IMG/VR virus record: IMGVR_UViG_3300029319_000001
Length of the DNA: 64,000 nucleotides
Direction: 5' to 3' (one strand)
Origin: a virus
Lineage: Duplodnaviria > Caudoviricetes
This document shows, one piece after another, positions 3,054 through 34,269 of this stretch. Both the position numbers and the translations under genes were made by a program. Numbering within the stretch: the first letter of the stretch is position 1; each line of letters starts with the position of its first letter. The notes beneath the pieces were generated by a model, which searched no databases, was not told the DNA's origin, and saw nothing but the letters and a program-made list of their open reading frames with translations.

Positions 3054-3073
3054 TTTTTATCATGTGATTTATT

Positions 3074-19010: not shown

Positions 19011-19065
19011 GACAGTGATTTAAGTGTCTACTACATCCCCATTGTGAGGTAAAATGGTGTATAAT
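19011..19065 (+). promoter_or_regulatory. Early-type promoter with upstream box (copy 1)
   Basis: GACAGTGATTTAAGTGTCTAC - 28 nt - TATAAT. Confidence 0.65.
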
Positions 19066-19071
19066 ATAGGT

Positions 19072-20235
19072 ATGAAGAATACCCATCTTGAACACTTAGA
19101 AGATGACATCCTCAACAGTGGTGCTGTTGGTGGATTCAATGTCGTTTCTGTACTCAGATCATTTGGTAATATGCTCACAGGCACTAAGTCTGATCTAAGT
19201 GTTACTACTAAGTGGGATGGAGCTCCTGCAATTATTTGTGGCACTGACCCTGTTACTGGTAAATTCTTTGTTGGAACTAAATCAGTATTCAATAAGATTA
19301 CACCTAAAGTATGTTATGATAATGTTGATGTTGATCGTTTTTATGAGTCAGAAGTACTTCGTGCAAAGTTAAAAGATTGTCTTAAGTATCTCTCTCAATT
19401 AAATATCAAAGGTATTATTCAAGGAGATTTATTATTCTCATCAGGAGACAAGAGATATGCTAGTATTGGTGGACACAGAGTTATTACATTTAATCCTAAT
19501 GCCATAACTTATGCAGTATCGTGTCAATCAAGTCAAGGTATGGCAGTAGAGAGAGCAAATATTGGTATTGTATTTCATACAGTATATCAAGGTAGTTCAA
19601 TACAAGATTGCAAGGCAGTATATAAAGCACCCTTATTTGTAGGCACAGAAGATATATTCATACCTAATGCTAATTTCAATGATGCTAAAGGTATAAGTCG
19701 TTTCAGTAATAGTCAGAAGATCAAGTATATTGCTACTATTAATCGTGCGGAGGGTTCACTCAAGAGAGCATCAAGATTTCTTGATATCATGCAAAGTCAT
19801 GGTCAATCTAGATTCTTAATGCCAACATTATTCAAGCAATTCTTTAATACACAAATTCGTACTGGTAAGACTATTGTAAACACTAGAAGAACAGTTGCAC
19901 AGTTTGCTAAGTTTTATTCAGACAGATTAGATGCTGAGATCAATACTAAAACCAGTGTCAAGGGCAAAGAGAGATACAAGAGGATGAAGGCAGAAGGTCT
20001 TAATTTTATTGCTAGGTATGAGAATGAGATATATTTTACATTTGCATCATATATTTCTATTCGTGATGCTAAGAAGATGGTAATCTCACAATTAAACAAG
20101 GTTGGTCAAATAAGAACATACATAGGAAATACACCAACAAATCCAGAGGGATATGTTGTTTCCACCAACAACTACGCAATGAAGTTTGTTGATGATGACT
20201 TTAGAAAAGCAAACATTCTCTTTGGAATACAATGA
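19072..20235 (+). CDS. Conserved phage protein (DUF6267-like) with ligase-type nucleotidyltransferase motifs
   Basis: MKNTHLEHLED start at 19072; TTKWDGAP (KxDG), IQGDLL, PEGYVV, MKFV. Confidence 0.65.
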   Translation: MKNTHLEHLEDDILNSGAVGGFNVVSVLRSFGNMLTGTKSDLSVTTKWDGAPAIICGTDPVTGKFFVGTKSVFNKITPKVCYDNVDVDRFYESEVLRAKLKDCLKYLSQLNIKGIIQGDLLFSSGDKRYASIGGHRVITFNPNAITYAVSCQSSQGMAVERANIGIVFHTVYQGSSIQDCKAVYKAPLFVGTEDIFIPNANFNDAKGISRFSNSQKIKYIATINRAEGSLKRASRFLDIMQSHGQSRFLMPTLFKQFFNTQIRTGKTIVNTRRTVAQFAKFYSDRLDAEINTKTSVKGKERYKRMKAEGLNFIARYENEIYFTFASYISIRDAKKMVISQLNKVGQIRTYIGNTPTNPEGYVVSTNNYAMKFVDDDFRKANILFGIQ

Positions 20236-21539
20236 AAAAGATCGCTGTTATCGGTGCAGGTGTTATTGGTATTACTTCTATTCTACAGTTGATAGAACAG
20301 CGAACTAATCTTAATGCAGAAAATGATTGTAAAATAGTATGGTTATATGACACATCAATAGATATATTTGGTATTGGAGAGTCAACAACACCATCATTAT
20401 CAGGACAAATTGCTAGTCCACCATCATATTTGAGATATGATTCTAAAGATTATTTTGATGCTACTATCAAGTTTGGTAATAGATTTGTAGGATGGGGTAA
20501 AAATGGTGGAGATTTTACCAGATACTTTCCTATGAGTACTGCTGCTATTCATTTTGATACTAGATTATTCAGTAGTTTCTTTATTGAACATCTAAATGAA
20601 GAGAGTTGTTATAATTTTGAGTCAAGAGATACTAAAATAAAATCAATAAGTTTCGATCAAGACCCTATAGGTGGACATTGCTTTGGTGTTGTTATTGATG
20701 GAGAGTCATTTGATTTTGTATTAGATTGTAGTGGTGGCAAATCACTGGTGAATGATGATTATTATTTCGATTCACCCTTTGAGACTTGTAACACAGTTCT
20801 TGCTACTAGACTACCAGAACCTGCAGATTGGGGTTATACATTAACACAGACCACTCGAAATGGTTGGATGTTTGGAATTCCATTGCAAAGCAGAAGAACT
20901 TATGGTTATGCTTATAATTCAAGTGTTACAACAGAAGAGGAGGCACAGCAAGATTTTAGAAGTCTAGTTCCTCAAGAAGGACATCAATATAATAAGTTTA
21001 CTTGGAAACCTAAATTCTCAAACTATGTGTTACATCATAGTGGTAGATATGCTCGTAATGGAAATGCGTTAGGATTTCTTGACCCACTTGAAGCACTAGC
21101 AGGTATGTATTATGATAGTGTGACAGATAAGATGTCAAATTATGCTCTTGGCGATACATATAATAACATAGAACTGATTAATGATATCAATAGTTGGTAT
21201 TATCAAGAAGTTATTGGGGATTGGTTATTAAATTCTGCATGGATGTATCATTTTGGTTCAGAACATGACACCCCATTCTGGCAACAAGTCCAGAAAAATG
21301 CTAAAGATATATTAAATAATAAGGAGATTAATCCTTGTCGTTTAATAAGTGATGAACAAACATTTACTGATGATTTGTTCAATATTATAGGGGATGACCC
21401 AGAAATGAGAAGGTTATTTGTTCATGATCTACTTGATGTTGAGTTTACTTTCGATTTCTGTCGTGATTATTATAACTTCAGTTCATTTACTAGAGGAATG
21501 AGTGCAGATTATGCCAACAAGTTTCCTACATTTACATAA
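20232..21539 (+). CDS. Flavin-dependent tryptophan halogenase-like protein
   Basis: GAGVIG FAD motif, GIGESTTP, ATIKFG (catalytic Lys position), DCSG, GWMFGIP, GNALGFLDPLEA. Confidence 0.85.
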   Translation: MKKIAVIGAGVIGITSILQLIEQRTNLNAENDCKIVWLYDTSIDIFGIGESTTPSLSGQIASPPSYLRYDSKDYFDATIKFGNRFVGWGKNGGDFTRYFPMSTAAIHFDTRLFSSFFIEHLNEESCYNFESRDTKIKSISFDQDPIGGHCFGVVIDGESFDFVLDCSGGKSLVNDDYYFDSPFETCNTVLATRLPEPADWGYTLTQTTRNGWMFGIPLQSRRTYGYAYNSSVTTEEEAQQDFRSLVPQEGHQYNKFTWKPKFSNYVLHHSGRYARNGNALGFLDPLEALAGMYYDSVTDKMSNYALGDTYNNIELINDINSWYYQEVIGDWLLNSAWMYHFGSEHDTPFWQQVQKNAKDILNNKEINPCRLISDEQTFTDDLFNIIGDDPEMRRLFVHDLLDVEFTFDFCRDYYNFSSFTRGMSADYANKFPTFT

Positions 21540-21542
21540 CTT

Positions 21543-22928
21543 ATGACTAGAAAAATTGCTATTATTGGTGGTACTGATGCAGTACAAGTATTATTGAATT
21601 GCGTGTCACATAGGGATACTATGGATAGTGTGTATCAGGATGATGAAATAGTTTGGATTCGTGATTGTTCTCACATTATTGATGACTATGGAATACAAAC
21701 CGAGTCCGAGTGGGGAGAAATAGTTGGGGAGAATACTACATTAAGTTCAATACATCTATCAAGATTATTAGATGGTAAACAAAAGTGGGGTAAAAAGTTT
21801 ATTGGATTTGGTAATGACACACCACATAATTTTTATGTACTGTATGAACTAACTCATGTGGGTTGGCATTTAAACGGTAGAAAAATGGTAGATTTATTCT
21901 GGAATAGTTATACTAATACTGCCAAAAATGTAAGGATGATTGATGCTCATGTAGATAATATTGATGTACAAAATGATTATGTTAAAATACTAGATGAAAA
22001 ATATGATTTTGTAATTGATTGTACCAGAGGTGCATTATGGGATCATGATTCTTATAGTGAAGCATTATATAATCCAACAAATGCATCTCTAACAGTTCAT
22101 AAAAAGGTAGAGGGTAAATGGAATTATACTGCACATATTGCAGGTAAACATGGATATTTAACAGGCATTCCTATTAAAGATGCTCAAACATGGATATATT
22201 CATACGATAAAGATATAACAACACTTGATGATGCAATTTTAGACTTTAATAACCATTGTGAAATAACAACAAATGAGTTGCCTAAGATAAGTGAGTATGA
22301 TAAAATGTTATCAGACTATTGTATCCATCCTAATAATAGGTATGCTAGATGTGGTCGTGCATTGGGGTTTAATGATGAGTTAAACAACTTTAAAAACTAT
22401 CTTGAAGGAGATTTAGCAGAAGCAATATCAATGTATCTGTTTGAAGACCCTGAGAGACAACAGACAGAATATCAAAGATTAGATGTAGAGGATAGATATC
22501 AAGATGGCAAAAAAGATTGTGCATCATCACTCGGTTTCTATCTACAGGAAGGTTCTCAATATAAAACTGAGTTCTGGGAACAAACTAGAACAAATGCGTG
22601 TTTATGTTTAGAGAATAGAGAATACTTTGATATATCTACAAATCTCATACAATATGAATATCTTAAAATGAATGAACTCATCCCACCAGAGGAGAATATT
22701 CGTTTAGATTATTTTAGGAGATTAGCAGATGATGAACAGCGTTTGAGACAAAAACAAACTGCTGTATCTGACGAACCTTATAGATTGTTAGGTAGTTATC
22801 AGATATTTACTGAGACTACTAGAGGTCTCGGTTCACCTTATGCTCACCTATTTCCATTAATGACAGACATGTTACCACCATCATCCGAACCTTTCGGAGA
22901 AATCAACCTCGATCCAATAACATGGTAA
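21543..22928 (+). CDS. Degenerate halogenase-like paralogue
   Basis: Same motif order but degenerate: IIGGTDAV, QKWG, DCTRG, HGYLTGIP, GRALGFNDELN. Confidence 0.65.
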   Translation: MTRKIAIIGGTDAVQVLLNCVSHRDTMDSVYQDDEIVWIRDCSHIIDDYGIQTESEWGEIVGENTTLSSIHLSRLLDGKQKWGKKFIGFGNDTPHNFYVLYELTHVGWHLNGRKMVDLFWNSYTNTAKNVRMIDAHVDNIDVQNDYVKILDEKYDFVIDCTRGALWDHDSYSEALYNPTNASLTVHKKVEGKWNYTAHIAGKHGYLTGIPIKDAQTWIYSYDKDITTLDDAILDFNNHCEITTNELPKISEYDKMLSDYCIHPNNRYARCGRALGFNDELNNFKNYLEGDLAEAISMYLFEDPERQQTEYQRLDVEDRYQDGKKDCASSLGFYLQEGSQYKTEFWEQTRTNACLCLENREYFDISTNLIQYEYLKMNELIPPEENIRLDYFRRLADDEQRLRQKQTAVSDEPYRLLGSYQIFTETTRGLGSPYAHLFPLMTDMLPPSSEPFGEINLDPITW

Positions 22929-23278
22929 GAACTTTAATTAAGGATTTTCCACTTACCGAGGTTATTAGAAAACCTATGAGTAAAGACACATACAGTAAAG
23001 AAGAAGTGGATGCTCTCATTCAATATGCTATTGATGAAGCAAGAAAGATTGATGAAGAATCAATGCGTAAACATAATCGTGATGCTACTGTTATCAGTAT
23101 GATATTAGGGTTTACTGCACTTGCGTTATTTGTTGATGGTCTGTTAAGATTATTAGGTATCATTCCACCATTTATGGAGATTGATATAGATGTACTTGAC
23201 CAGATTGTTGAGAGAGTGGAGACGGATGTAATAGACAAACTGAAACAAGTGCCTATCCAAAAATTACTAAGAAGATGA
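22922..23278 (+). CDS. Membrane protein resembling a picocyanobacterial conserved hypothetical
   Basis: HNRDATVISMILGFTALALFVDGLLRLLGIIPPF hydrophobic segment. Confidence 0.65.
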   Translation: MVRTLIKDFPLTEVIRKPMSKDTYSKEEVDALIQYAIDEARKIDEESMRKHNRDATVISMILGFTALALFVDGLLRLLGIIPPFMEIDIDVLDQIVERVETDVIDKLKQVPIQKLLRR

Positions 23279-23562
23279 TTTCATTTTTACTTTCAATGGC
23301 AGGATTATTAAACCTGTTATTTTATATCTTTGCCATTGGTTTCTTAATTTCATTAGGATTAGAACAATGGATTAAGTTTAGACCTCTATCAGTTGATAAA
23401 ACAATAAATGATAGAAATGAATACATAGTTCAGAGCAACAGAAAATACTGTTGGAGACAAGCGTGGGTAGTTAACATTAACTGGTTCGCTTGCAATGTAG
23501 GTTTATACTTTGTATCAAGAAGTATGTTAAATCCAGTGGACAATTTTTGGAATGGAATGTAA
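23275..23562 (+). CDS. Hypothetical membrane protein
   Basis: Two hydrophobic segments; ATGA overlap. Confidence 0.6.
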   Translation: MISFLLSMAGLLNLLFYIFAIGFLISLGLEQWIKFRPLSVDKTINDRNEYIVQSNRKYCWRQAWVVNINWFACNVGLYFVSRSMLNPVDNFWNGM

Positions 23563-23565
23563 AAT

Positions 23566-23637
23566 ATGTGGTATGTAATATTTTGGACAGTATTAACAAT
23601 TTATCTTTTGAAACAAGTAGGAGTATTTAAAAAATGA
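23566..23637 (+). CDS. 23-aa single-helix membrane microprotein (not in ORF track)
   Basis: MWYVIFWTVLTIYLLKQVGVFKK; ATGA-coupled to the next ORF. Confidence 0.4.
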   Translation: MWYVIFWTVLTIYLLKQVGVFKK

Positions 23638-23810
23638 CATTTCTATCATGCCCACCTGTATATCATTTGCCAGGAACATGGACAGAGTGTAAGAAACCAT
23701 TAATTAATCATCTTAATCTTGAACCAAGTATAGGATTTATGGTATTTTTTGGATTGCTTTTTATATTATTAGTTGCTTATGGTATTACTAACTTAAAGAA
23801 AGCAAAATGA
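23634..23810 (+). CDS. 58-aa membrane microprotein (not in ORF track)
   Basis: MTFLSCPPVYHLPGTW...FMVFFGLLFILLVAYG...; ATGA overlaps at both ends. Confidence 0.55.
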   Translation: MTFLSCPPVYHLPGTWTECKKPLINHLNLEPSIGFMVFFGLLFILLVAYGITNLKKAK

Positions 23811-24028
23811 AATTCGACCCCAATAGCATACCACTAAGAAATACATCACAAGAATTTGAATATGAGAAGATATCAAGAGAGATTGATCGATGTGATGATA
23901 TTAAGGAGTTGCAGAATATGTGTAAGTTTCTACTCAAGTTAGAAATGAAAACTAGGGAGACTTATAGTATTATGATTGCTGATACTATTGAAGCAATGAA
24001 CATAGACCTACCACAGGACAATTTGTAA
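23807..24028 (+). CDS. Conserved cyanophage hypothetical protein
   Basis: 73-aa helical ORF, coupled upstream. Confidence 0.65.
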   Translation: MKFDPNSIPLRNTSQEFEYEKISREIDRCDDIKELQNMCKFLLKLEMKTRETYSIMIADTIEAMNIDLPQDNL

Positions 24029-24072
24029 AGTGTACACTATCGGTTGCAATACTTTTCAATATGACCTATATT
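24017..24072 (+). promoter_or_regulatory. Early-type promoter with upstream box (copy 2)
   Basis: GACAATTTGTAAAGTGTACAC; TTGCAA (24044-49) - 17 nt - TATATT (24067-72). Confidence 0.75.
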
Positions 24073-24078
24073 AAGAAT

Positions 24079-24330
24079 GTCGAAACAAACCAACATAAGA
24101 CTTTCAAGGTTGCGGAGACCGAAACTGTATGATCGAGGAGGTGTAAGTCCCCATTGATTAATGACTAGTCAGTTAATCAAAAGAATACCACGCAGTCGCA
24201 CCACGCATTTAATTTGAACTTAAGCAGTTGAGTTTTGTTTCGACCCACCTACACCACAAAATAGTGGCATTTATCAAGCACTTGTCTGATGTAAAATCCT
24301 AGGTCTCAGACTACATGATGTAAGACCACT
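24079..24330 (+). ncRNA. Candidate structured ncRNA or long 5' leader, family not recognised
   Basis: Perfect 11-bp closing stem 24079-89/24234-44 starting at the predicted TSS; internal hairpins 24154-24180, 24099-103/24145-49, 24254-67, 24284-311. Confidence 0.6.
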
Positions 24331-24336
24331 TAAAAC

Positions 24337-24393
24337 TGACAGTTAAAAAACTGTCACAAGAGACCTAACAGGTCTCTTTTTTTATGTCATAAT
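24337..24393 (+). promoter_or_regulatory. Box copy 3 (perfect palindrome) with extended -10
   Basis: TGACAGTT-N4-AACTGTCA, then TGtCATAAT at 24385-24393. Confidence 0.65.
24358..24383 (+). terminator. Intrinsic terminator
   Basis: AAGAGACCT-aac-AGGTCTCTT followed by a T-run. Confidence 0.7.
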
Positions 24394-24414
24394 AATAATA
24401 TAGACAACAAATTA

Positions 24415-24648
24415 ATGAATTTTATTCAACGATACAAAAAACCCGAATACATTGGAGTCGGGGATAATGTCAAATATAATAATAAGGAGTATCAGGTTCT
24501 TATTAATTATATCAAGGGAGATAAAGATCGTAAGGGATTTATCCCAACAGAAAACTTTACTATCCTAATTGACCACAATGGCAAGAGAATTACTTGTCAT
24601 GATTATACTGAACTTGAAATCTTAACAAATTCTACTTTCATATCATGA
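24415..24648 (+). CDS. Hypothetical early protein (SH3-like beta composition)
   Basis: IGVGDNVKYNNKEYQV...; first ORF after promoter. Confidence 0.6.
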   Translation: MNFIQRYKKPEYIGVGDNVKYNNKEYQVLINYIKGDKDRKGFIPTENFTILIDHNGKRITCHDYTELEILTNSTFIS

Positions 24649-24806
24649 AGATTACACCAAAAGAAAAAATGATAGTCAACCTCATGGAAGAGGTTATCAG
24701 CATTCTATCAACATGCAAAGACTTATCAGACCCAGAGTTCTCAATGTATGAGACTATGAAACATGCTGTTGATACAGAAGTTTACTACCCACTATACGAC
24801 AACTAA
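24645..24806 (+). CDS. 53-aa hypothetical protein (not in ORF track)
   Basis: MKITPKEKMIVNLMEEV...; ATGA overlap. Confidence 0.55.
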   Translation: MKITPKEKMIVNLMEEVISILSTCKDLSDPEFSMYETMKHAVDTEVYYPLYDN

Positions 24807-24819
24807 GGAGGAATTAATT

Positions 24820-25071
24820 ATGTCATACTGCGATTTATGTCATGTCTATGATGACGAGCATACCGATGGCGAACCATCAATGCAGATCGGGAAATATTAC
24901 AAACCATTACTAGACTATTTCTATAGTGTAGAGGTCATGGGCGAGAAATGGTGCGACTACAACTGGGGAAAACTTAAAAACTCAGAAGGCGATGAAGTCA
25001 CTTGCATGTGTCAAATATGTTTCAATTCTATGGATAGGATGGGTAAAATCAAATGGAAATGCTCATCATGA
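24820..25071 (+). CDS. Small putative Zn-binding protein
   Basis: GGAGG SD before ATG 24820; CDLC near the N-terminus and CMCQIC near the C-terminus. Confidence 0.6.
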   Translation: MSYCDLCHVYDDEHTDGEPSMQIGKYYKPLLDYFYSVEVMGEKWCDYNWGKLKNSEGDEVTCMCQICFNSMDRMGKIKWKCSS

Positions 25072-25772
25072 ATTCAGTAATATCAGGAACAAAAGCAAAG
25101 AAAGATGGACACAAATATGAAGAAGAGTGTGTTCATCTTTTAAATGAACGATTTGGTGGAGACCATAAAACCGATGGCAGACCACAAACTAAGGTAGATG
25201 TATATGACAATGAAGGAACTAACAAATATTCAGTAAAGAATGTATCTAAAAACCATACCCAAGTAGCATTGCTATCAAGCAAGAAGTTTATAGATTACTT
25301 TGGTATTAGTGATAGTCATTGCGAATACTTTATAAAAATGTTCTTTGGATATCCAAATAAAAACCTAGTATCTATTGTTGAGAGCATACATCCATACTTA
25401 AACCTTAGTGATGCTGAAAAGAGACAAAATAGAGTATATAGAAATAATATATCAGATGATATTGTTGAAAGTTTCTTATCATTCATGAATTCATATAAGA
25501 TGGAAATATTTGATATTATTGTAAAAAGAGGATTTAGTGGGGATAGTATTAATCATATAGTATGGAGAAATAAAATAACAAACAATGTTGATATCATAAA
25601 TGTTGATTCTCTCGTATCACTAGTTGAAAATGGTACATGGAAAATAAATAATACTACACTAGAGTTTAGGACTAGTGACAACTTTAAACTATTCCATTTA
25701 CAAATGAAAGGAAGCGGTAAAAAATATAATAGTGGTTATCATGGGATGATGTTTCACATGTATTGGAGGTAA
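25053..25772 (+). CDS. PD-(D/E)xK restriction-endonuclease-like protein
   Basis: GHKYEEE helix, KVDV...YSVK catalytic core, HTQV and HLQMKG segments reminiscent of HinP1I/MspI-type enzymes. Confidence 0.6.
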   Translation: MEMLIMNSVISGTKAKKDGHKYEEECVHLLNERFGGDHKTDGRPQTKVDVYDNEGTNKYSVKNVSKNHTQVALLSSKKFIDYFGISDSHCEYFIKMFFGYPNKNLVSIVESIHPYLNLSDAEKRQNRVYRNNISDDIVESFLSFMNSYKMEIFDIIVKRGFSGDSINHIVWRNKITNNVDIINVDSLVSLVENGTWKINNTTLEFRTSDNFKLFHLQMKGSGKKYNSGYHGMMFHMYWR

Positions 25773-25773
25773 T

Positions 25774-25902
25774 ATGCGAACAGATACTACACTTGAAAAG
25801 AAGGATGAAAAATGGTATAATAATCAACATATACATCCAAATGCTAGGGAAGATGTAGTGGACAGTAAGGAAAGTGAATACAGACCTGCATATTGGCAAT
25901 AA
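25774..25902 (+). CDS. 42-aa hypothetical protein (not in ORF track)
   Basis: GGAGG SD, MRTDTTLEKKDEKW...AYWQ. Confidence 0.4.
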   Translation: MRTDTTLEKKDEKWYNNQHIHPNAREDVVDSKESEYRPAYWQ

Positions 25903-25916
25903 TCATACACTATACT
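25861..25916 (+). promoter_or_regulatory. Early-type promoter with upstream box (copy 4)
   Basis: GACAGTAAGGAAAGTGAATAC - 29 nt - TATACT. Confidence 0.55.
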
Positions 25917-25941
25917 TAATACATACGATATTATTAAATCA

Positions 25942-27216
25942 TTGATTACACTAAGACCTCATCAAGAGCGAACACTTGACAAATTAAAAAAGTTCGATAA
26001 AGGTTGTGTGTATATTCCTACTGGTGGTGGTAAGACTATCATTATGTTGGAAGATTTAGTACAACGATTAGAAACTAGTGATGCTCCATTAACTGTTGTT
26101 ATTGTTGCACCTCGTTTATTACTAGCAAATCAATTATGTTCTGAATTTCTAGAATATACACAGGACAATGATAACATAGTTCTCAATGACAACTTAAATA
26201 TATTGCATGTTCATAGTGGAGAGACATCTTTCGATTCATCTACCAGACCTCGTTACATTCATGAGTGGATAGTTGATAGACAATTTCAATTACAGCATCA
26301 AATCATATTTTCTACATATCACTCACTAGGCAGACTAGAGGATGCTATGATAGATGTTGATATCATGTATTGTGATGAAGCACATAACGCCACTCAGAAA
26401 AACCATTTTGTTGGAGTTGCTAACACATCTACCAATGCATCTAACAGTTATTTTTTTACTGCTACACCAAAATACACTAGACAAACTAATGGTAGAGGTA
26501 TGAATAACACCGATGTTTTTGGTAAAACTCTAATTAGTGTTCCTGCACCAGAATTAATTGACAATGGTAGTATTATACCACCAAAACTTGTAATACATGA
26601 AACAGAGCATGTGAGAACTAAACAAAATGCACCTGATGTAGATAGAGAAATGATATTAGAAATTCTCGAAGATATATCAGAAGAACAAAGTGCTAAAGTT
26701 TTGGTTGCTGCTCCTAATACTACAATATTATGGAGAATATTATCACAGACAAATCTCTTATATGTCTTAAAGCAATTAGGTTATGATGTATTACATATTA
26801 CATCAAAGCATGGTGCTTATGTCAATGACAAGAAAGTTGGTAGGGATGTATTCTTTAATACTCTAACAGAGTGGGGAAGGGATGACAATAAAAAGTTTAT
26901 TGTATTCCATTATTCTATATTATCTGAAGGTATCAATGTTCCAGGATTAACTCATACAATATTATTGAGAAATCTACCAGTTATCGAAATGGCACAGACC
27001 ATAGGAAGAGTCATAAGACTACATAAAGAAGATGCAGATAATATTGCTAAGGGCAATATTCCAGTTGGTAACTATCAATTATATCGTAAATCTCATGGAG
27101 TGGTTACAGTTCCGTTATGTGGTAAAGCATCACTCTCAACTAGGAAGAGACTAGAGAAGATTATCGAATTAATCTTTGAAGATGGACTTCCTGCACATTC
27201 ATTCGCTAACTCTTAA
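25942..27216 (+). CDS. Superfamily II DNA/RNA helicase (ResIII-like)
   Basis: PTGGGKT (Walker A), CDEAH, FTATP, LSEGINVP, QTIGRVIR. Confidence 0.92.
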   Translation: MITLRPHQERTLDKLKKFDKGCVYIPTGGGKTIIMLEDLVQRLETSDAPLTVVIVAPRLLLANQLCSEFLEYTQDNDNIVLNDNLNILHVHSGETSFDSSTRPRYIHEWIVDRQFQLQHQIIFSTYHSLGRLEDAMIDVDIMYCDEAHNATQKNHFVGVANTSTNASNSYFFTATPKYTRQTNGRGMNNTDVFGKTLISVPAPELIDNGSIIPPKLVIHETEHVRTKQNAPDVDREMILEILEDISEEQSAKVLVAAPNTTILWRILSQTNLLYVLKQLGYDVLHITSKHGAYVNDKKVGRDVFFNTLTEWGRDDNKKFIVFHYSILSEGINVPGLTHTILLRNLPVIEMAQTIGRVIRLHKEDADNIAKGNIPVGNYQLYRKSHGVVTVPLCGKASLSTRKRLEKIIELIFEDGLPAHSFANS

Positions 27217-27218
27217 CA

Positions 27219-27380
27219 ATGGCATTCCTACACACTATTTTTTATAAAAACAATGGTAGTGGTTCTATGTTAGAATCAACTATTATAGCATCATCCCCTG
27301 ATGACGCTAAAACAACATTTCTATCAACTCATCCCGATGCAATGATTGATAGAATATTAACAACAGTACCTGCTAAGTAA
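27219..27380 (+). CDS. 53-aa hypothetical protein (not in ORF track)
   Basis: MAFLHTIFYKNNGSG...; follows helicase by 2 nt. Confidence 0.55.
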   Translation: MAFLHTIFYKNNGSGSMLESTIIASSPDDAKTTFLSTHPDAMIDRILTTVPAK

Positions 27381-27385
27381 ACATC

Positions 27386-27541
27386 ATGTTTTTTGAAATT
27401 CGCAAACAAGAAGTAATTTTCTATAGTCCAAACTTAGGACTTCAGAGTGTTATTGTAAATAGCAATAATCCTGATGGTGCTAGACAATTAATCCTAGAGC
27501 AATATGGTAATGTTGATATCAAGAGAGTAAATTCTCTATAG
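27386..27541 (+). CDS. 51-aa hypothetical protein (not in ORF track)
   Basis: MFFEIRKQEVIFYSPNLG...; similar pattern to the previous ORF. Confidence 0.55.
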   Translation: MFFEIRKQEVIFYSPNLGLQSVIVNSNNPDGARQLILEQYGNVDIKRVNSL

Positions 27542-27550
27542 GAGGATATC

Positions 27551-27700
27551 ATGATAACACCAAATTGGCAACACCATAGTAAGAAGGACAAGAAGAGAAC
27601 ACTAAAACCACAGGCACTTAGGAGTGCTAGAGAGAGACGCAGACAGTTGATAAAGAGGCACAAGCACCTTTCAAAAGGTGCTTTTTTGTTGCTATACTAG
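27551..27700 (+). CDS. 49-aa basic cyanophage microprotein (not in ORF track)
   Basis: GGAGG SD; PNWQHHSKK...LKPQALR motif recalled from other cyanomyophages. Confidence 0.65.
   Translation: MITPNWQHHSKKDKKRTLKPQALRSARERRRQLIKRHKHLSKGAFLLLY
27642..27698 (+). promoter_or_regulatory. Early-type promoter with upstream box (copy 5)
   Basis: GACAGTTGATAAAGAGGCACA - 30 nt - TATACT. Confidence 0.6.
27662..27687 (+). terminator. Intrinsic terminator embedded in promoter
   Basis: AAGCACCTT-tcaa-AAGGTGCTT plus T-run. Confidence 0.65.
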
Positions 27701-27724
27701 ATGTATAAACAAAGCAAATCAATT

Positions 27725-28198
27725 ATGCCAAATACACCACCAATACAAATTGATGAACGACTTGTAACAACAGCACCAACTGATGTACAGGCAACTCAGG
27801 CAGATGTTTTAAACTATGCAGAATTTCTTGCTCAAATCCTAGAGCAACATTATAGACAGTATCACAGAAATATGCTACTAAGAGGTACTTCAGATTATTC
27901 CAGAGAACAGTTGGAAGCAATGGACAATGGAACAGCGAAGTTAATGAAGTTTAGAGTACAAAAAGGTAAGAGATATCTCAAGGTTATTCAAGTTGAGTTC
28001 GATACATTTCAAAATAGAAATGAGTACAGAGACGGTTCAGTACATGCATTTATAGACAAGAATACAGGCGATGTATATAAACCTGCAAGTTGGAAATCCC
28101 CTGCAAAGCATGTCAGATACAACTTACTTGACCCCAAATCTCGTGAGTATTGCTACAAAGTTGCAGATTGGGTTGGTTCATATCTCTATCTAAGATAA
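27725..28198 (+). CDS. Conserved phage hypothetical protein
   Basis: SVHAFIDKNTGDVYKPASWKSPAKHVRYNL motif; likely start 27725. Confidence 0.7.
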   Translation: MPNTPPIQIDERLVTTAPTDVQATQADVLNYAEFLAQILEQHYRQYHRNMLLRGTSDYSREQLEAMDNGTAKLMKFRVQKGKRYLKVIQVEFDTFQNRNEYRDGSVHAFIDKNTGDVYKPASWKSPAKHVRYNLLDPKSREYCYKVADWVGSYLYLR

Positions 28199-28248
28199 TG
28201 CAAATAACAACAATTACAAAACAACAATTTATCAACGGAGATTTTAAA

Positions 28249-28446
28249 ATGAACAATCTTGACCTTTTGAGTGATGTACTAGAGGATTTTTGCACTAAGC
28301 ATAATATACCATTCATGAGTGCTGATGACATAATAACAGCACACATATATGCAGAAATCCCATCATTAACTCAGTATCAACAAAAATGGTTAGAGAATTA
28401 CATCCAAGTGTGGGATTTAACTCAAGATCAGGGGAATGTATCATGA
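28249..28446 (+). CDS. Hypothetical early protein
   Basis: GGAG SD before ATG 28249, preferred to 28150. Confidence 0.6.
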   Translation: MNNLDLLSDVLEDFCTKHNIPFMSADDIITAHIYAEIPSLTQYQQKWLENYIQVWDLTQDQGNVS

Positions 28447-28507
28447 TGCCAGTTGTAATTTTCTTTTTAATCGTTTTCAGTATCCAATTAGCAAGTGATG
28501 TATGGTC

Positions 28508-28720
28508 ATGAACAGAACAATTATTAATTACACATTCCAAATAGAATGTGACAGCGATGATGCACCAAACCCAGTTCATTTATGTGAGGAAATTCAAGCA
28601 TATTTGAATTCTGGTTATCATTATGATGAACCATTTGAAATGGTAGAAAAAGCAGAAGTAAAAGGATATCATGTTAAAAGAGACGAGTTCAACCCATTTT
28701 ATGCACAGGAGAATTATTAA
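28508..28720 (+). CDS. Acidic hypothetical protein
   Basis: In the chain of coupled ORFs. Confidence 0.55.
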   Translation: MNRTIINYTFQIECDSDDAPNPVHLCEEIQAYLNSGYHYDEPFEMVEKAEVKGYHVKRDEFNPFYAQENY

Positions 28721-28977
28721 TGGACAAAGCACTAATTAATGAACTAAAATCTTTTTTAGTTGAGCGAGTGGTTGATAATATGTCAACCGAGGACTTAGTA
28801 TCATATGTTACAGCAGACCTTGATGACATGTATAAAAACATGTCGGATGCTGAATTTATCAATGATGCTCAAAACTATTGGGAAGATCACTTTGGCGAAG
28901 TTGTTGATGAAATTCAAGATTATATCAAGTGTGATTTCAAAAGACCATTAAGAGAATCATTCGAGGAGACAAACTAA
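28720..28977 (+). CDS. Acidic helical hypothetical protein
   Basis: TAATG coupling. Confidence 0.6.
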   Translation: MDKALINELKSFLVERVVDNMSTEDLVSYVTADLDDMYKNMSDAEFINDAQNYWEDHFGEVVDEIQDYIKCDFKRPLRESFEETN

Positions 28978-29168
28978 TGACATTCGACTCAGAACACTAC
29001 TATGCAGTTCAATCATTTTTAAATGATGATGAACTATGTAAGATATGGAACATTATCGAAATTGCTATGAACAGAGAAGGTTACGATGTAGAAAACTCAG
29101 AACTTTCGATGAGACTATACGATGATGAACTAACAGAAAATGTTGAATATGATATGGGTATAACATAA
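28977..29168 (+). CDS. Acidic hypothetical protein
   Basis: TAATG coupling. Confidence 0.55.
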   Translation: MTFDSEHYYAVQSFLNDDELCKIWNIIEIAMNREGYDVENSELSMRLYDDELTENVEYDMGIT

Positions 29169-29356
29169 TGGCATTAAAGATGGACAAAGACCTTAAAAAG
29201 TTGATGAAAAAGTATGATTTCAAACTTGAAAAGGTTGGCAAACACTATACTTGGCATGGGGCAAATGGTGCTATAATAGTAACATCCAAAACACCAGGAA
29301 AAGCAAGATATCTCAAGGAGATAGAATGCAACATTCGTAAACAACTCAGCAATTAA
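29168..29356 (+). CDS. HicA-like small basic protein
   Basis: 62 aa; LKKLMKKYDF-LEK-GKHY-W...IIVTSKTP...LKEIE pattern fits the HicA alpha-beta-beta-beta-alpha fold with a His after beta1. Confidence 0.5.
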   Translation: MALKMDKDLKKLMKKYDFKLEKVGKHYTWHGANGAIIVTSKTPGKARYLKEIECNIRKQLSN

Positions 29357-29360
29357 TCTC

Positions 29361-29579
29361 ATGAACAAAAAGCAATTTTTCCCATCACATTCTGAATCTA
29401 TCGATGTAGGATATATGACCTACCTTGATTTACTAACAGAGTTACAAAATTTAGATGAAGATAGACTTTTAGATGTTGTTACGGTCTATGATACACTAGA
29501 CGATGTATTTTTACCAGTTGGTAGGATTATAACAAATAATCATAATGAGAAGATCGGAAGCACATGTTTAGAGGTATGA
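29361..29579 (+). CDS. Hypothetical early protein
   Basis: 72-aa ORF in the coupled chain. Confidence 0.55.
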   Translation: MNKKQFFPSHSESIDVGYMTYLDLLTELQNLDEDRLLDVVTVYDTLDDVFLPVGRIITNNHNEKIGSTCLEV

Positions 29580-29633
29580 CAGTTTAATTAGTGTCTACAA
29601 ATGCATGTTTTTGGTCAGATCATTTATTATAAT
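29578..29633 (+). promoter_or_regulatory. Early-type promoter with upstream box (copy 6)
   Basis: GACAGTTTAATTAGTGTCTAC - 29 nt - TATAAT. Confidence 0.75.
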
Positions 29634-29640
29634 AGATGTA

Positions 29641-29713
29641 TAGGACAGAGGAAAGGTTTACGCCCCAACCGAGATAATTTCAAAGGAAAGGTTACCGCCC
29701 CAACCGAGTCCTA
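29641..29713 (+). ncRNA. Candidate structured leader/sRNA with two 25-nt repeats
   Basis: TAGGAC/GTCCTA closing stem; repeats 29649-73 and 29684-708 are 23/25 identical, each with a GGTT/AACC stem and a CGCCCC loop. Confidence 0.55.
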
Positions 29714-29740
29714 AAATCTATTCAATTTAATTCAAAAACT

Positions 29741-29929
29741 ATGCGAAAAGGATTAAACATCGAAGTCACTAACTCTCAATATGACTTCCTTTATGACCTC
29801 GTGATGATGGCATATGAGTTAGATATCCCAGAGCAAAAAGGTTGGGATATGCAAACTTTCGACAATCTTGTTGATAATGTATGCCAAGCAACAGAGACTA
29901 ATTTATCAAACAATGTAAGAGGAGTTTAA
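29741..29929 (+). CDS. Hypothetical early protein
   Basis: First ORF after the repeat leader. Confidence 0.6.
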   Translation: MRKGLNIEVTNSQYDFLYDLVMMAYELDIPEQKGWDMQTFDNLVDNVCQATETNLSNNVRGV

Positions 29930-29930
29930 A

Positions 29931-30125
29931 ATGAATTACAGAATGACTAAAAAACAAGCAGTTCAGCAATTTAGATGGGATTGGTCAGATTTTGTACAAA
30001 GCAATCCATCATATAGAGGAGACAGTATTGCTAAACGATGTGCATTTAACGATTATGTTGACTCACTCAATAAAGACGGATTAGTAACAGATTATCAAGC
30101 ATACAACTGGAGCAACCCATTCTAA
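29931..30125 (+). CDS. Hypothetical early protein
   Basis: GGAG SD; aromatic-rich 64 aa. Confidence 0.6.
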   Translation: MNYRMTKKQAVQQFRWDWSDFVQSNPSYRGDSIAKRCAFNDYVDSLNKDGLVTDYQAYNWSNPF

Positions 30126-30271
30126 TGAACATTCAAGAAGAAATCTTTGACCAAATCGAAGAACTAAACACTAGTTTAAGAGAATTAAATGATGGCGATT
30201 TAGTAGAATGTAGATCAGCATTAATTGATCGCACTAACATAATCATGCAACTATTAGAGGAACTTTCATGA
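30125..30271 (+). CDS. 48-aa acidic coiled-coil protein (not in ORF track)
   Basis: MNIQEEIFDQIEELN...; coupled at both ends. Confidence 0.55.
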   Translation: MNIQEEIFDQIEELNTSLRELNDGDLVECRSALIDRTNIIMQLLEELS

Positions 30272-30528
30272 AATTCTATAATGTACAATCTAGAATAACC
30301 AAGGATAACCCAGTTCAATCAGAACATTTTGGTAGGCATTTTTGGTTAGATGATGAGCAAGAATTGATGAGTTGCCCATCATTCAACGATGATACCGCAG
30401 ATTTTAACAATGCTGATTATGTATCAGAGTGGACAGACCTCGAAGGTTTAGACCTAGGAAAATTGTTAGAAGTTTATAAAACTCTCATCAATCATGATAA
30501 TTATATTGATGAACTAAGCAATGTGTAA
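30268..30528 (+). CDS. Acidic hypothetical protein
   Basis: ATGA overlap. Confidence 0.6.
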   Translation: MKFYNVQSRITKDNPVQSEHFGRHFWLDDEQELMSCPSFNDDTADFNNADYVSEWTDLEGLDLGKLLEVYKTLINHDNYIDELSNV

Positions 30529-30706
30529 ACAATTTATTAACCCTAAAATCATGAAACTAAAACCAAAAACAATTAAAGTAGAATTCACATTTGATGAATT
30601 ATATCAAATGAACAAATTGTATGAGACAATGTTAGATATGGATATGACAGAAGACCTACCCAAGGAAATTGAAACTAGTTTTGATAAAATTCGAGAGGCA
30701 AAGTAG
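30521..30706 (+). CDS. Hypothetical protein
   Basis: 61 aa; may start at a downstream ATG. Confidence 0.5.
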   Translation: MCKQFINPKIMKLKPKTIKVEFTFDELYQMNKLYETMLDMDMTEDLPKEIETSFDKIREAK

Positions 30707-30761
30707 ACAGTTTAATTAGTGTCTACTCATGCCTGTTTTTGGTATCATTATCCATTATAAT
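30703..30761 (+). promoter_or_regulatory. Early-type promoter with upstream box (copy 7)
   Basis: GTAGACAGTTTAATTAGTGTCTAC - 29 nt - TATAAT; box identical to copy 6. Confidence 0.75.
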
Positions 30762-30789
30762 AGTAGTATAAACAAAGGAAATCGAAATT

Positions 30790-31008
30790 ATGAACAAAAC
30801 TCAAACAGTTATGAACCGAATCGTACAAGTTGACAACTTTCAGAATATGGCATGTTGTTGTGCAAACTGGGCAGAGTTCGTACAAGAATTAGCAGAGTGG
30901 GGTGTTGACGGTTGTGCTAAGATAGATTTTGATGATGCTGACCTAGATGTTGCTAGACTAGATGCTTTCATACATGCAGAAAACGGATATGTAAGGGAGG
31001 TTGCATAA
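30790..31008 (+). CDS. Hypothetical early protein
   Basis: First ORF after promoter, A-rich leader. Confidence 0.65.
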   Translation: MNKTQTVMNRIVQVDNFQNMACCCANWAEFVQELAEWGVDGCAKIDFDDADLDVARLDAFIHAENGYVREVA

Positions 31009-31316
31009 TGCCATTTGACCATACATCACCCTATACAGAGTATAATGATCTAATGAGAAAAGCAAAGCAATTAGAACTAGAGAGTCAACTAAAGGAACTA
31101 AAAGCAATCCAACTTGACAATTTCAAAAGAGAACCGAATCATCCTAGAAACAAATTTGATTATGCTATCATAGTTCCAAATCATCCCCTAGGATATCATG
31201 AACACTATTGTATGGACTTAGAAGTTGCAAAGCAATCGGCAAGAGAGTGGTCAGCAGATTATGGTCGAGTATCTGTAGAAGACAAAAACCTAAACACAGT
31301 TTACGCTATTTTTTAA
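31008..31316 (+). CDS. Hypothetical early protein
   Basis: TAATG coupling. Confidence 0.6.
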   Translation: MPFDHTSPYTEYNDLMRKAKQLELESQLKELKAIQLDNFKREPNHPRNKFDYAIIVPNHPLGYHEHYCMDLEVAKQSAREWSADYGRVSVEDKNLNTVYAIF

Positions 31317-31318
31317 TC

Positions 31319-31516
31319 ATGACAGAACAACAATCACTAGAGTGGGATGCCAAAATAGTTATGGAACAAATACACATGGCAGAGTCTAGGCATATGCAGA
31401 TGGGGGCATTATGTTCCTATCTACTTCAATATCCTGATATGACAATCAGAGACTTTTTTACAATGTCAGCAAAAGAGATCAGAGAAGAAGAGGAGGAACT
31501 AGGTTATTATGAGTAA
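31319..31516 (+). CDS. Hypothetical early protein
   Basis: ATG 31319 just after the previous stop is preferred to 31208. Confidence 0.55.
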   Translation: MTEQQSLEWDAKIVMEQIHMAESRHMQMGALCSYLLQYPDMTIRDFFTMSAKEIREEEEELGYYE

Positions 31517-31691
31517 TATACAAAACGAGATCATACTTGAAAATCTATATGATGAAGTATGGATAGAATATAGAGACAAGAATAATTTAACTGATGACCA
31601 GTTATATGCACTTGAGCAAAATTCTATTAATGGTATTATACCAGAGATAGAAGCAGAAACTACCAGAAGATTTGATGATATGTGCCAATAA
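31509..31691 (+). CDS. Acidic hypothetical protein
   Basis: 60 aa, coupled. Confidence 0.55.
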   Translation: MSNIQNEIILENLYDEVWIEYRDKNNLTDDQLYALEQNSINGIIPEIEAETTRRFDDMCQ

Positions 31692-31740
31692 TATTAGTGT
31701 CACAACAAAACCCCATTCGGGGTTTTTTATTGGTTATAAT
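31684..31740 (+). promoter_or_regulatory. Early-type promoter with upstream box (copy 8)
   Basis: GCCAATAATATTAGTGTCACA - 30 nt - TATAAT. Confidence 0.65.
31707..31728 (+). terminator. Intrinsic terminator embedded in promoter
   Basis: AAAACCCC-attc-GGGGTTTT plus T-run. Confidence 0.6.
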
Positions 31741-31770
31741 AAGAGTAACAAACAAACACAGGTAACACAC

Positions 31771-32088
31771 ATGAGAAAAATTGAAAGACAAATGAATCAA
31801 GCAATCAGGTCAGGCAATAACTTCTCATCATCCAATACTACAGTTAAGCACTTCGATGGCGATGCTGAAGTTTACCTACATGGCAATCATATCGCAACAG
31901 TAATGAGCAATTCAATCATCATCAAAGATGGCGGTTGGCAATCCAATACAACTAAATCTAGACTCAATGCACTATTAGATGAGTTTTCATACGGTATGAG
32001 AGTTTTTCAGAAAAACTTTGAGTGGTTCGTATCTTACAAAAATGTAAGCGAGGACTTCGTAAGCGGTATGGAACTAGCAATAGATTAA
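31771..32088 (+). CDS. Conserved phage hypothetical protein
   Basis: MRKIERQMNQAI...VYLHGNHIA...GGWQSNTTKSRLNAL; start 31771 lies after the promoter. Confidence 0.7.
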   Translation: MRKIERQMNQAIRSGNNFSSSNTTVKHFDGDAEVYLHGNHIATVMSNSIIIKDGGWQSNTTKSRLNALLDEFSYGMRVFQKNFEWFVSYKNVSEDFVSGMELAID

Positions 32089-32142
32089 TGAAATCAACCG
32101 CTTACTTCTTTCTTTCAATCATCCTTTATCATTCTTTAAATT

Positions 32143-32397
32143 ATGTCAGCATACAGCAAACTTTTTGATTTCGTAGATTATGTTTGGTCATTCTACGGTA
32201 ATGAAGACCCATTATATCCTATCAAGGGATTAACAAAAAAGCACATCTTTGACGCTATTTTTATATACAGAGACAAAATAATTGAAGCAGAGAAAACTGG
32301 CAATCCTTATTACAGTTGGGGCGATGGCGATTCACTAGACAGAGAGAGAGTAAGGGATATCATTCTAGATGAGTTCAAACTTGAGTGGGTGGGTTAA
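32143..32397 (+). CDS. Hypothetical early protein
   Basis: GDGDSLDRERVRDI motif. Confidence 0.6.
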   Translation: MSAYSKLFDFVDYVWSFYGNEDPLYPIKGLTKKHIFDAIFIYRDKIIEAEKTGNPYYSWGDGDSLDRERVRDIILDEFKLEWVG

Positions 32398-32398
32398 T

Positions 32399-32518
32399 AT
32401 GAATTACGAAACATATAAAGAGATCTTAAAACTCTATGAATCAGGCGATGGGTTCGAGTTTTTCGATCTCAAATCTGAGTACTACTATCTACTATTCAAT
32501 CAAGAGGAGGATTTTTAA
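32399..32518 (+). CDS. 39-aa hypothetical protein (not in ORF track)
   Basis: Fills the gap exactly between neighbours. Confidence 0.45.
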   Translation: MNYETYKEILKLYESGDGFEFFDLKSEYYYLLFNQEEDF

Positions 32519-32770
32519 ATGAAAAGAGAACCACAGTTGCCCGAATTCAACAAAAAGAAGAAAACACAGATCGAAAGAGATATTGCTTACTGTATAGACA
32601 TACTAGGATTAAATAATGGTCAGATCGGCGAAATGTTTAGAGCATGTGAAGAGTTAGGTAATATCTCAGTTCAGTATTTTTGTGAAGAGTTTATATTTCT
32701 TGCCGAAATGGATGAATTAGAGAGGTATCACGATAATAACTATCTAACAATTAAGTGGGGGTTATTATAA
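32519..32770 (+). CDS. Hypothetical protein
   Basis: GGAGG SD. Confidence 0.6.
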   Translation: MKREPQLPEFNKKKKTQIERDIAYCIDILGLNNGQIGEMFRACEELGNISVQYFCEEFIFLAEMDELERYHDNNYLTIKWGLL

Positions 32771-33081
32771 TGCCTAGAAAGAGTAAATTAAGTATGGATA
32801 AATTATCATCTGGAATTGAGTATTTCACAGGGGTAAGTGCTACTTTAGTAGTCATATTTGCCGATAGTTATAATCAATATACCTTAGTCAATTTCCTATC
32901 TAAATATGAAGATGAGTTGGGAATCGCCCTAAAAAATGATACTTACCAGGATGAATACGATGGTTGGTTATTACATACCGAGCAAAGTTCAGAAAAAGAT
33001 ATTAATAGAATATGTGCTATAATAGAGGAAGATATAGACATTGACGAGTGTTATGTTCTATCACTAACTAATAACAATTAA
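32770..33081 (+). CDS. Acidic hypothetical protein
   Basis: TAATG coupling at 32770. Confidence 0.55.
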   Translation: MPRKSKLSMDKLSSGIEYFTGVSATLVVIFADSYNQYTLVNFLSKYEDELGIALKNDTYQDEYDGWLLHTEQSSEKDINRICAIIEEDIDIDECYVLSLTNNN

Positions 33082-33089
33082 ATACAATT

Positions 33090-33263
33090 ATGTTATACAA
33101 TGTACAACTTAGTCATGAACAGTTAAGTATACTTAGAGTGCTACTTGGTAATTATAAAAGTAAGTGGGCAAAAAATAATGTGCCTTTACCTTTACATATA
33201 ACAGACCTAATTGATTCAACTGATTATCAACTAAGATGCAATTTAACAAAGGAAACTATGTAG
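33090..33263 (+). CDS. 57-aa hypothetical protein (not in ORF track)
   Basis: MLYNVQLSHEQLSILRVLL... Confidence 0.4.
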   Translation: MLYNVQLSHEQLSILRVLLGNYKSKWAKNNVPLPLHITDLIDSTDYQLRCNLTKETM

Positions 33264-33472
33264 AATTCCCCGATAAAATGCGTGGAATTGTTGACTTTAT
33301 AAGTGAACAATACATAACCGTTTGTGTTAGTGTAAAGAAAAATGTGTGTGGTCATTCTTTACAACCAATGACTAAGTGTTGCCTGTTAGTTTATCCTAAT
33401 GAACAGAAACAGTTAGTGTTAATTAAGGAAGAAAGTACACTAGAAGATATATACAAACCACACACAGATTAA
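33236..33472 (+). CDS. Hypothetical protein (SH3-like)
   Basis: FNKGNYVEF...GIVDFISEQYITVCV...CCLLVY. Confidence 0.6.
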   Translation: MQFNKGNYVEFPDKMRGIVDFISEQYITVCVSVKKNVCGHSLQPMTKCCLLVYPNEQKQLVLIKEESTLEDIYKPHTD

Positions 33473-33629
33473 ACCCGTCTGAGTGTCATTTAAGGGGCAT
33501 ACATAAGTGTTTGTGAGTATATACGGAAAGTTATTAAATACCTTTTTAAATATACATGAGTGTTTTATTCTTCTCTCAGTAAATGTTAATTAATGTGTGT
33601 AAATGTACGGAGTTGTTGTAAGTTAAGCG

Positions 33630-33659
33630 AGTGTACTATGGATTCAAGTAAATGTCAAG
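33630..33659 (-). promoter_or_regulatory. Possible minus-strand sigma70 promoter
   Basis: Minus strand TTGACA (33659-54) - 18 nt - TACACT (33635-30). Confidence 0.4.
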
Positions 33660-33726
33660 TATCAGATTATAATATTACACAGAGGTCACAATTTCCTCAC
33701 AGTTCTTGTTAATTAGGCAGGGTAAT

Positions 33727-33755
33727 TTGACATCTGCCAGTTACTTTGCTATAAT
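33727..33755 (+). promoter_or_regulatory. Consensus sigma70 promoter
   Basis: TTGACA - 17 nt - TATAAT with extended TG. Confidence 0.88.
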
Positions 33756-33786
33756 ACAGTTATTAACACTGAGGTATTGCAATCGT

Positions 33787-33927
33787 ATGGCAGAGTATTA
33801 CTTAACCTTTGAAGATTATGAAGAAAGTAATAACAATTCCGATGATAATGATGACCTTGATTATTACTCTCGCACAGACTATTATGAATCACTAAGTAAT
33901 AATTATTATTGTAATTATGGACACTAA
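33787..33927 (+). CDS. 46-aa acidic, Tyr-rich microprotein
   Basis: ATG 33787 downstream of the promoter (the 33706 start lies upstream of it); 12 D/E, 10 Y. Confidence 0.6.
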   Translation: MAEYYLTFEDYEESNNNSDDNDDLDYYSRTDYYESLSNNYYCNYGH

Positions 33928-34049
33928 GTAACACAAATTGACAGTGTATTTCGTGCCTTATATGTTATCGTGGTTTTGTGATGCGGTTTAAATCGAAGGA
34001 ACCTTTGTAAGCTATAAACGACCCAATTCGACCTTGCTATATCTCTCTA

Positions 34050-34123
34050 GAAAAAAAATATCCAATATATAAAAACGAACATCAGGATTCGTTTTGTGAA
34101 AAAAAATATCCAGAATATAAAAA
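34050..34123. repeat. 26-bp direct repeat pair flanking an 8-bp palindrome
   Basis: GAAAAAAAATATCCAatATATAAAAA-like copies at 34050-75 and 34098-123; AAAACGAA/TTCGTTTT at 34072-95. Confidence 0.6.
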
Positions 34124-34257: not shown

Positions 34258-34269
34258 AATAGGGGGTCG

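Follow-up and report, generated by a model that had tools for sequence, protein, structure and literature searches.

The box region and its eight units

The DNA analysed here is a 64-kb stretch (hereafter the window) of IMG/VR virus record IMGVR_UViG_3300029319_000001, and the subject is a 21-base semi-palindromic box that occurs in it eight times between 19 and 32 kb, each time upstream of a -10 hexamer. Judged by its sequence, the window is a piece of a T4-like cyanomyovirus. Coding lies almost entirely on the plus strand, and the gene content includes gp25-like and gp6-like baseplate genes, talC, a manA RNA, a 2OG-Fe(II) oxygenase, a UvsW-type helicase and a Kyanoviridae-specific protein. 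Short stretches of the window match Prochlorococcus and Synechococcus myoviruses. The nearest cultured relatives are P-SSM3, P-SSM4 and P-RSM3, of which only short pieces match (86-89%), and a 44-kb IMG/VR fragment, G001, is 98% identical to the window. The box region itself is a stretch of small genes just before the baseplate module.

A sequence-only reading of this DNA had proposed that the eight boxes stand at a fixed distance from early -10 elements, and all eight 21-mers were recovered at their reported positions. The proposed gap of 28-30 nt between 21-mer and hexamer held in every unit, whereas a strict TAnnnT form for all hexamers did not: the hexamers are TATAAT in four units, TATACT in two, TATATT in one and, at 24388, CATAAT with TG upstream. 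In the list below, scores come from a matrix built only from five other cyanophages, with the window excluded (the independent matrix), and gaps run from the end of the 21-mer to the -10; ORF stands for open reading frame.

19011..19031, plus strand: box 1; score 16.4, gap 28 nt; -10 TATAAT at 19060-19065, 6 nt ahead of ATG 19072 of a DUF6267 gene
24017..24037, plus strand: box 2, moderate; score 9.2, gap 29 nt; -10 TATATT at 24067-24072; best -35 TTGCAA, 4/6
24338..24358, plus strand: box 3, perfect dyad GACAGT-N6-ACTGTC; score 21.5, gap 29 nt; -10 CATAAT at 24388-24393; ORF 24415-24648 downstream
24358..24385, plus strand: intrinsic terminator between box 3 and its -10; 9-bp stem and T run, -11.7 kcal/mol
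25861..25881, plus strand: box 4, degenerate right half; score 3.1, gap 29 nt; -10 TATACT at 25911-25916; helicase gene (start 25942)
27642..27662, plus strand: box 5; score 19.4, gap 30 nt; -10 TATACT at 27693-27698; DUF7717 gene (likely start 27725)
27662..27689, plus strand: intrinsic terminator between box 5 and its -10; -11.7 kcal/mol
29578..29598, plus strand: box 6; score 24.0, gap 29 nt; -10 TATAAT at 29628-29633; ORF 29741-29929; overlaps the TGA of ORF 29361-29579
30706..30726, plus strand: box 7; score 20.1, gap 29 nt; -10 TATAAT at 30756-30761; ORF 30790-31008
31684..31704, plus strand: box 8; score 23.6, gap 30 nt; -10 TATAAT at 31735-31740; Kyano_Gp96 gene (likely start 31771); overlaps the TAA of ORF 31509-31691
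31707..31732, plus strand: intrinsic terminator between box 8 and its -10; -11.6 kcal/mol

The full element extends beyond the 21-mer to a longer dyad of about 24 bp, adding TGT 5' and ACA 3' of the core, which had been overlooked. Overlooked as well were the intrinsic terminators nested in the spacer between box and -10 in three of the eight copies (24338, 27642 and 31684); in the remaining units a spacer hairpin is absent or weak. One of the eight promoters had been credited with a good -35, a claim that fell, as the best -35 anywhere has at most 4/6 matches at a spacing of 16-18 nt; the general pattern of promoters lacking a -35 stood. The left half of the box (nnGACA) was also considered as a -35 and rejected on inspection of the eight copies, none of which has a -10 at 16-18 nt downstream. 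The TTGACA-type promoters at 2837, 33727 and 34270 had been said to show no box, and their best upstream score with the independent matrix was indeed negative; a fourth such promoter, at 33938, likewise lacks one. Box-type promoters and TTGACA-type promoters thus make up, as proposed, two separate classes in the window.

Several units carry features of their own. At box 1, the Pfam DUF6267 match starts two residues past the Met at 19072, which suggests that an mRNA from this promoter would be leaderless or nearly so; P-SSM3 has, at about 28.8 kb, a TATAAT and downstream sequence similar to this unit. Box 2 overlaps the stop codon of ORF 23807-24028, and its promoter precedes a unit of about 300 nt that holds no ORF. 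The right half of box 4 is nearer to the consensus in the close relative G001, and P-SSM3 has a box of the same type ahead of its annotated helicase gene, as for box 4. Box 7 is identical to box 6, both lying in similar cassettes of about 80 nt.

The box defines a promoter class common to T4-like cyanophages

The repeated 21-base box is non-random. In leave-one-out scoring the eight sites reached 12-21.5, and the best non-site in the window 13.4. With the independent matrix, six copies were strong (16-24), 24017 was moderate and 25861 degenerate. When the presence of both box and -10 was required, the window held eight units with this matrix, compared to a mean of 0.2 and a maximum of three in 200 dinucleotide shuffles. 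Footprinting against G001 was uninformative, the 98% identity being too close.

Whole genomes of P-SSM3, Syn9, P-TIM40, S-PM2 and P-HM2 were then scanned together with the window for a box followed by a -10, and 76 such units were found across the six, the window's own included. The offset from the end of the core to the -10 has its mode at 32 nt and is 30-34 nt in 67 of the 76 units; the dyad takes a form close to TGTGnCAGT-N6-AsTGnCACA, about 32 nt ahead of TATAAT, and 44 sites from other genomes than the window give the consensus TgTGACAGTTgaataAGTGtCACA. Units cluster among small genes, at 45-55 kb in P-TIM40 and at 44.8-53 kb in Syn9. Only the dyad, the -10 and the region of the start are conserved; the spacer is not, and it often holds a hairpin or a full terminator. 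After the -10 there is a recurring stretch, GTATA, A or G, ACAA, which probably holds the transcription start. The variable symmetric positions 2 and 17 vary independently (Fisher P = 1), and positions 5 and 14 are pairable in only 11 of 53 sites; this lack of covariation at symmetric pairs argues that the dyad is a site for a protein rather than a folded strand.

The arrangement in P-HM2 (NC_015284) illustrates the symmetry of the element. A single palindromic box at 39292-39315 lies between two divergent early promoters, that of PHM2_064 leftwards and that of PHM2_066 rightwards, each with its -10 at 33 nt, and forms the centre of a divergent early gene cluster. Service of two divergent promoters by one dyad is as expected of a symmetric dimer.

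A novel regulatory element reportedly controls the early genes of Syn9 and P-TIM40, which are said not to be under host-like sigma70 promoters; middle genes are reportedly driven by host-like promoters, and T4-like cyanophages are said to carry both types widely. Small-gene clusters of these same two phages contain the box-plus-(-10) unit, and the window element very probably corresponds to the one that Doron et al. (2016) reported for early genes. An earlier promoter search was confined to the sigma70, late, Pho and NtcA types (Sullivan 2010). The eight units thus add a new instance to a known promoter class rather than founding another. The novelty implied by the sequence-only reading is not supported: the element is common to T4-like cyanophages of several genera, and it also matches a characterised host motif, CGRE1, which lowers its novelty on that reading's own terms.

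Box-type units precede early genes in P-HM2

Temporal classes were taken from an RNA-seq time course of P-HM2 infection (Thompson et al. 2016; PMC5082946, S2 Table), in which the class Early (A) in light comprises PHM2_056-070, 072-074, 135 and 136. Among the 11 best units of P-HM2, eight are immediately followed by Early (A) genes (binomial P = 2.9e-7). They include the units of PHM2_135 and PHM2_136, the sole early genes outside the main cluster, and two further units precede genes of the first middle cluster. The label 'early', attached to the window's promoters from their sequence, is thus backed by expression data from P-HM2. Parts of the window region are also present in marine metatranscriptomes, as assembled contigs only, which say nothing on starts, ends, strand or level.

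The box resembles the CGRE1 element of host yfr2 promoters

CGRE1 is an element of 21-22 nt that starts at -55 to -57 and is flanked by GTTG or GTTA in the promoters of yfr2 small-RNA genes of Prochlorococcus and marine Synechococcus (Lambrecht et al. 2018, PMC6191309). The GntR-family protein PMM1637, of the PlmA type, binds CGRE1-bearing yfr2 and yfr4 promoters in pull-down and in electrophoretic mobility shift assays, and raises the activity of yfr2/yfr4 promoters in an E. coli reporter, an effect abolished by the R50A substitution (PMC6191309). In MED4, CGRE1 has been reported nowhere besides the yfr2 promoters (PMC6778093). A published link of CGRE1 to phage promoters was not found in the literature searched, in which two cyanobacterial papers mention CGRE1 and neither concerns phages.

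We compared the phage element with the regions upstream of 35 yfr2-family genes, from host genomes reached via psbA; of 61 picocyanobacterial genomes, 60 had yfr2-family genes by the Rfam Cyano-1 model. The best match of the phage matrix lay 55-61 nt ahead of the RNA in 34 of these 35 upstream regions. De novo expectation-maximization on the host regions alone gave gtGaCAGTTgA..aAGtGgCC, which correlates with the phage motif in one register only (mean column correlation 0.77), a value reached by 0 of 20,000 column permutations. The distance from the G of the box to the -10 is 50-51 nt in 22 of 34 host promoters and 49-51 nt in the window. When the host-only matrix was run on the plus strand of the window, its top matches were the boxes at 24338, 27642 and 29578.

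The two elements are therefore alike in core (GTGnCAGTT, 5-6 nt, AGnGnC), in asymmetry, in the 50-51 nt to the -10 and in pairing a far-upstream activator site with a weak -35 region. They differ in that the phage copy is a fuller 24-bp dyad and stands before protein-coding early genes and not before yfr2. Downstream of the window boxes lie protein genes and one non-coding unit unrelated to yfr2, and Cyano-1 gave no match in the window at the gathering score and none at E up to 1 in 23900-34400. The full phage-type 22-mer (at most one mismatch) was not enriched in four host genomes, with 0, 0, 2 and 3 occurrences versus 1, 2, 3 and 11 for a control pattern; these four genomes carry the looser CGRE1 form only. 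Each of them has one GntR gene above the Pfam cut-off, and five complete phage genomes have none by the same search.

Many yfr2 promoters of low-light Prochlorococcus and Synechococcus types (host loci L144, L145, L148, L156, L158, L163 and L168) have a tighter second palindrome, AACTGnCAC-n-GTGnCAGTT, the right arm of which is the left half-site of the phage-type box. With this shared arm, the host regulator might bind in either of two registers.

Comparison with known promoter systems

The box had been judged to be neither a CRP nor an NtcA site, and this was upheld: TGTGACAGT-N6-ACTGTCACA sets TGTGA and TCACA 14 nt apart and contains no GTA-N8-TAC, whereas CRP sites are TGTGA-N6-TCACA and NtcA sites GTA-N8-TAC, so the window consensus fits neither spacing. 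In the middle promoters of T4, a MotA box accompanies a normal -10, and the -35 contact is replaced by the bound activator (sigma appropriation). The window promoters resemble these in that a specific box would stand in, through its activator, for the -35 contact and a normal -10 is kept; however, a MotA box is one asymmetric site, lies at -30 and is recognised by a phage protein acting with AsiA, whereas the window box is a dyad near -53. The genes motA and asiA are lacking in T4-like cyanophages (PMC5780444).

A further parallel is offered by the PeSL of T4-type phages, which are composite cassettes of a stem-loop and an early promoter (Arbiol 2010, PMC2839356; Comeau 2014, PMC4122927). Like them, the window units combine terminator and early promoter between small variable genes of a T4-like genome. 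In PeSL, however, the stem-loop immediately precedes a sigma70 promoter that is complete with -35 and -10, whereas the window units have the hairpin inside the promoter (in three of eight units), lack a -35 and carry a dyad box in addition.

A host activator as the probable reader of the box

We propose, with a probability of roughly 0.55, that the eight units are early promoters at which a dimeric activator, most likely the host's PlmA, acts on the dyad. The box of about 24 bp would present two half-sites, GTGnCAGT and ACTGnCAC, 6 nt apart, with its centre about 53 nt before the presumed start; a dimeric activator bound there would recruit host RNA polymerase with the main sigma factor to the -10. 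This activator would most likely be the single GntR-family regulator of the host, PlmA (PMM1637 in Prochlorococcus MED4), and the phage box would copy both the sequence and the box-to-(-10) distance of CGRE1 in host yfr2 promoters. Since the -35 contact would be dispensable, the terminator hairpin of the preceding unit can sit inside the promoter spacer, and a host protein already there when phage DNA enters would suit early genes. The sequence-only reading had a dimeric factor replace the -35 contact, which is supported in outline by a symmetric site at a fixed distance and the lack of a usable -35; the centre of the box falls near -53, if the start is placed 7 nt after the -10. It had left open whether the factor comes from host or phage, and the evidence assembled here favours the host. 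That T4-like cyanophages copy the yfr2 promoter to start infection, with PlmA as the host's only GntR regulator activating their early genes, we put forward tentatively, at slightly less than even odds.

Several observations weigh against this proposal. We infer from sequence both the binding of PlmA to the phage box and its activation from there, as well as the transcription starts in the window, for which RNA libraries offer assembled contigs only. Two of the window copies (24017 and 25861) are weak. The host-only matrix scores on the window no higher than on shuffled sequence, so that only the coincidence of positions was used. The phage dyad is longer and more perfect than most host sites, whose right half is weaker, and many low-light-type hosts carry instead an extra upstream half-site in the arrangement AACTGnCAC-n-GTGnCAGTT. 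The published CGRE1 starts 4 nt inside the phage-type box, so that the two definitions overlap and are not identical. Finally, induction of yfr2 occurs in high light and late in nitrogen starvation, whereas the early genes of P-HM2 are expressed in the dark too, from which it follows that the activator cannot be strictly stress-dependent.

Some of these points would fit a reader encoded by the phage, either an activator delivered with the virion or an early product that shuts off early transcription at the middle switch. The greater length and symmetry of the phage dyad looks as if tuned to another protein than that of the host element, full phage-type palindromes are not enriched in the four host genomes, and among the many small ORFs of unknown function that follow the boxes a fold outside Pfam could bind DNA. 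We nevertheless regard a phage reader as unlikely. Early promoters must fire ahead of phage protein synthesis; a centre near -53 is common among activator sites and ill suited to a repressor; Pfam searches found no GntR or recognisable DNA-binding domain in the five phage genomes, nor any DNA-binding domain in 20 small ORFs downstream in the window; and the match to the host element in sequence, spacing and shared asymmetry (G at positions 5 and 14) would be left unexplained.

Another explanation is that the units are chiefly recombination cassettes like PeSL, terminator-promoter modules whose homology swaps small genes and thereby conserves the box. Composite terminator and promoter modules do sit between small ORFs of a variable region, the identical boxes 6 and 7 lie in their similar cassettes beside different ORFs, short ORFs here are 93-97% identical to those of distant phages, and some contigs from marine RNA libraries join one box end to the terminator of another cassette, although this last observation is weak. 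However, the three indels that separate the window from G001 (24123-24127, 30125-30133 and 31296-31367) are not at boxes, conservation of the dyad, -10 and start region around a free spacer is the pattern of a protein site, the element also precedes host yfr2 genes, which are not shuffled cassettes, and the -35 of PeSL is missing from the window units. We find this improbable as the chief explanation, and a role in recombination may coexist with promoter function. Least credible of all, to the point of being very improbable, is that the box acts as RNA, folding into a stem-loop where the upstream transcript has its 3' end and serving the stability or processing of that transcript. Five copies overlap or follow the stop codon of the upstream ORF and the copy at 24338, a perfect dyad, folds into a hairpin, but base pairs do not covary at positions 5/14 and 2/17, the fixed distance is to the downstream -10 and not to the upstream stop, and a single dyad of P-HM2 is shared by two divergent promoters.

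A large share of the main photosynthetic bacteria in the ocean falls victim to T4-like cyanophages. What may be new in our analysis is the likeness to CGRE1, which points to a single host protein, PlmA, for which suitable assays have already been published. The window units display the class clearly, with a dyad box, a free spacer able to hold a terminator, a -10 and no -35. Were the proposal correct, the onset of infection would be tied to host light and nitrogen signalling, such that host physiology directly gates early infection, and dozens of high-affinity phage sites could draw PlmA off its own targets. With PlmA as the reader, early genes in uncultured cyanophage genomes would moreover be readily marked by the box.

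Other features of the window

Between the box 2 promoter and the terminator that follows box 3 lies a unit of about 300 nt (24079-24385) without any ORF longer than 26 aa. Its predicted fold has a long closing stem between the 5' and 3' ends (z = -3.05), and its 5' half is conserved in P-SSM3, P-SSM4, P-RSM3, P-RSM4, S-TIM4 and metaG-MbCM1, where the copies adjoin or overlap annotated methyltransferase or helicase genes or lie in unannotated DNA. Contigs from marine RNA libraries cover the unit. An Rfam search of 23900-34400 returned only a chance-level match, and 24079-24385 is a candidate conserved phage non-coding RNA that matches no Rfam family. The 5' leader of ORF 29741, downstream of the box 6 promoter, holds a 24-nt unit, GGAAAGGTTTACGCCCCAACCGAG, and a one-step variant of it 11 nt apart (29650-29708), also with no Rfam match.

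Two short stretches within small ORFs, 28248-28424 and 30135-30272, share 96.6% and 93.5% identity with P-RSM1 and P-RSM6, phages that are distant elsewhere, and the second adjoins an indel relative to the 98% identical G001. These matches suggest that single small genes were recently exchanged.

Three promoter types are present in the window, namely box-type, sigma70-type and late. The late type is represented by TATAAATA at 35840-35847, a T4-type late promoter core 29 nt ahead of the gp25-like baseplate gene (35876). The manA RNA (2871-3055; Rfam RF01745, 189 bits) follows directly after the consensus-like sigma70 promoter at 2837 and lies upstream of talC (3527-4180). A 392-nt intergenic stretch, 33928-34319, carries two TTGACA-type promoters (33938 and 34270) and, at 34051-34125, two copies 48 nt apart of an A-rich unit beginning AAAAAAAATATCCA.

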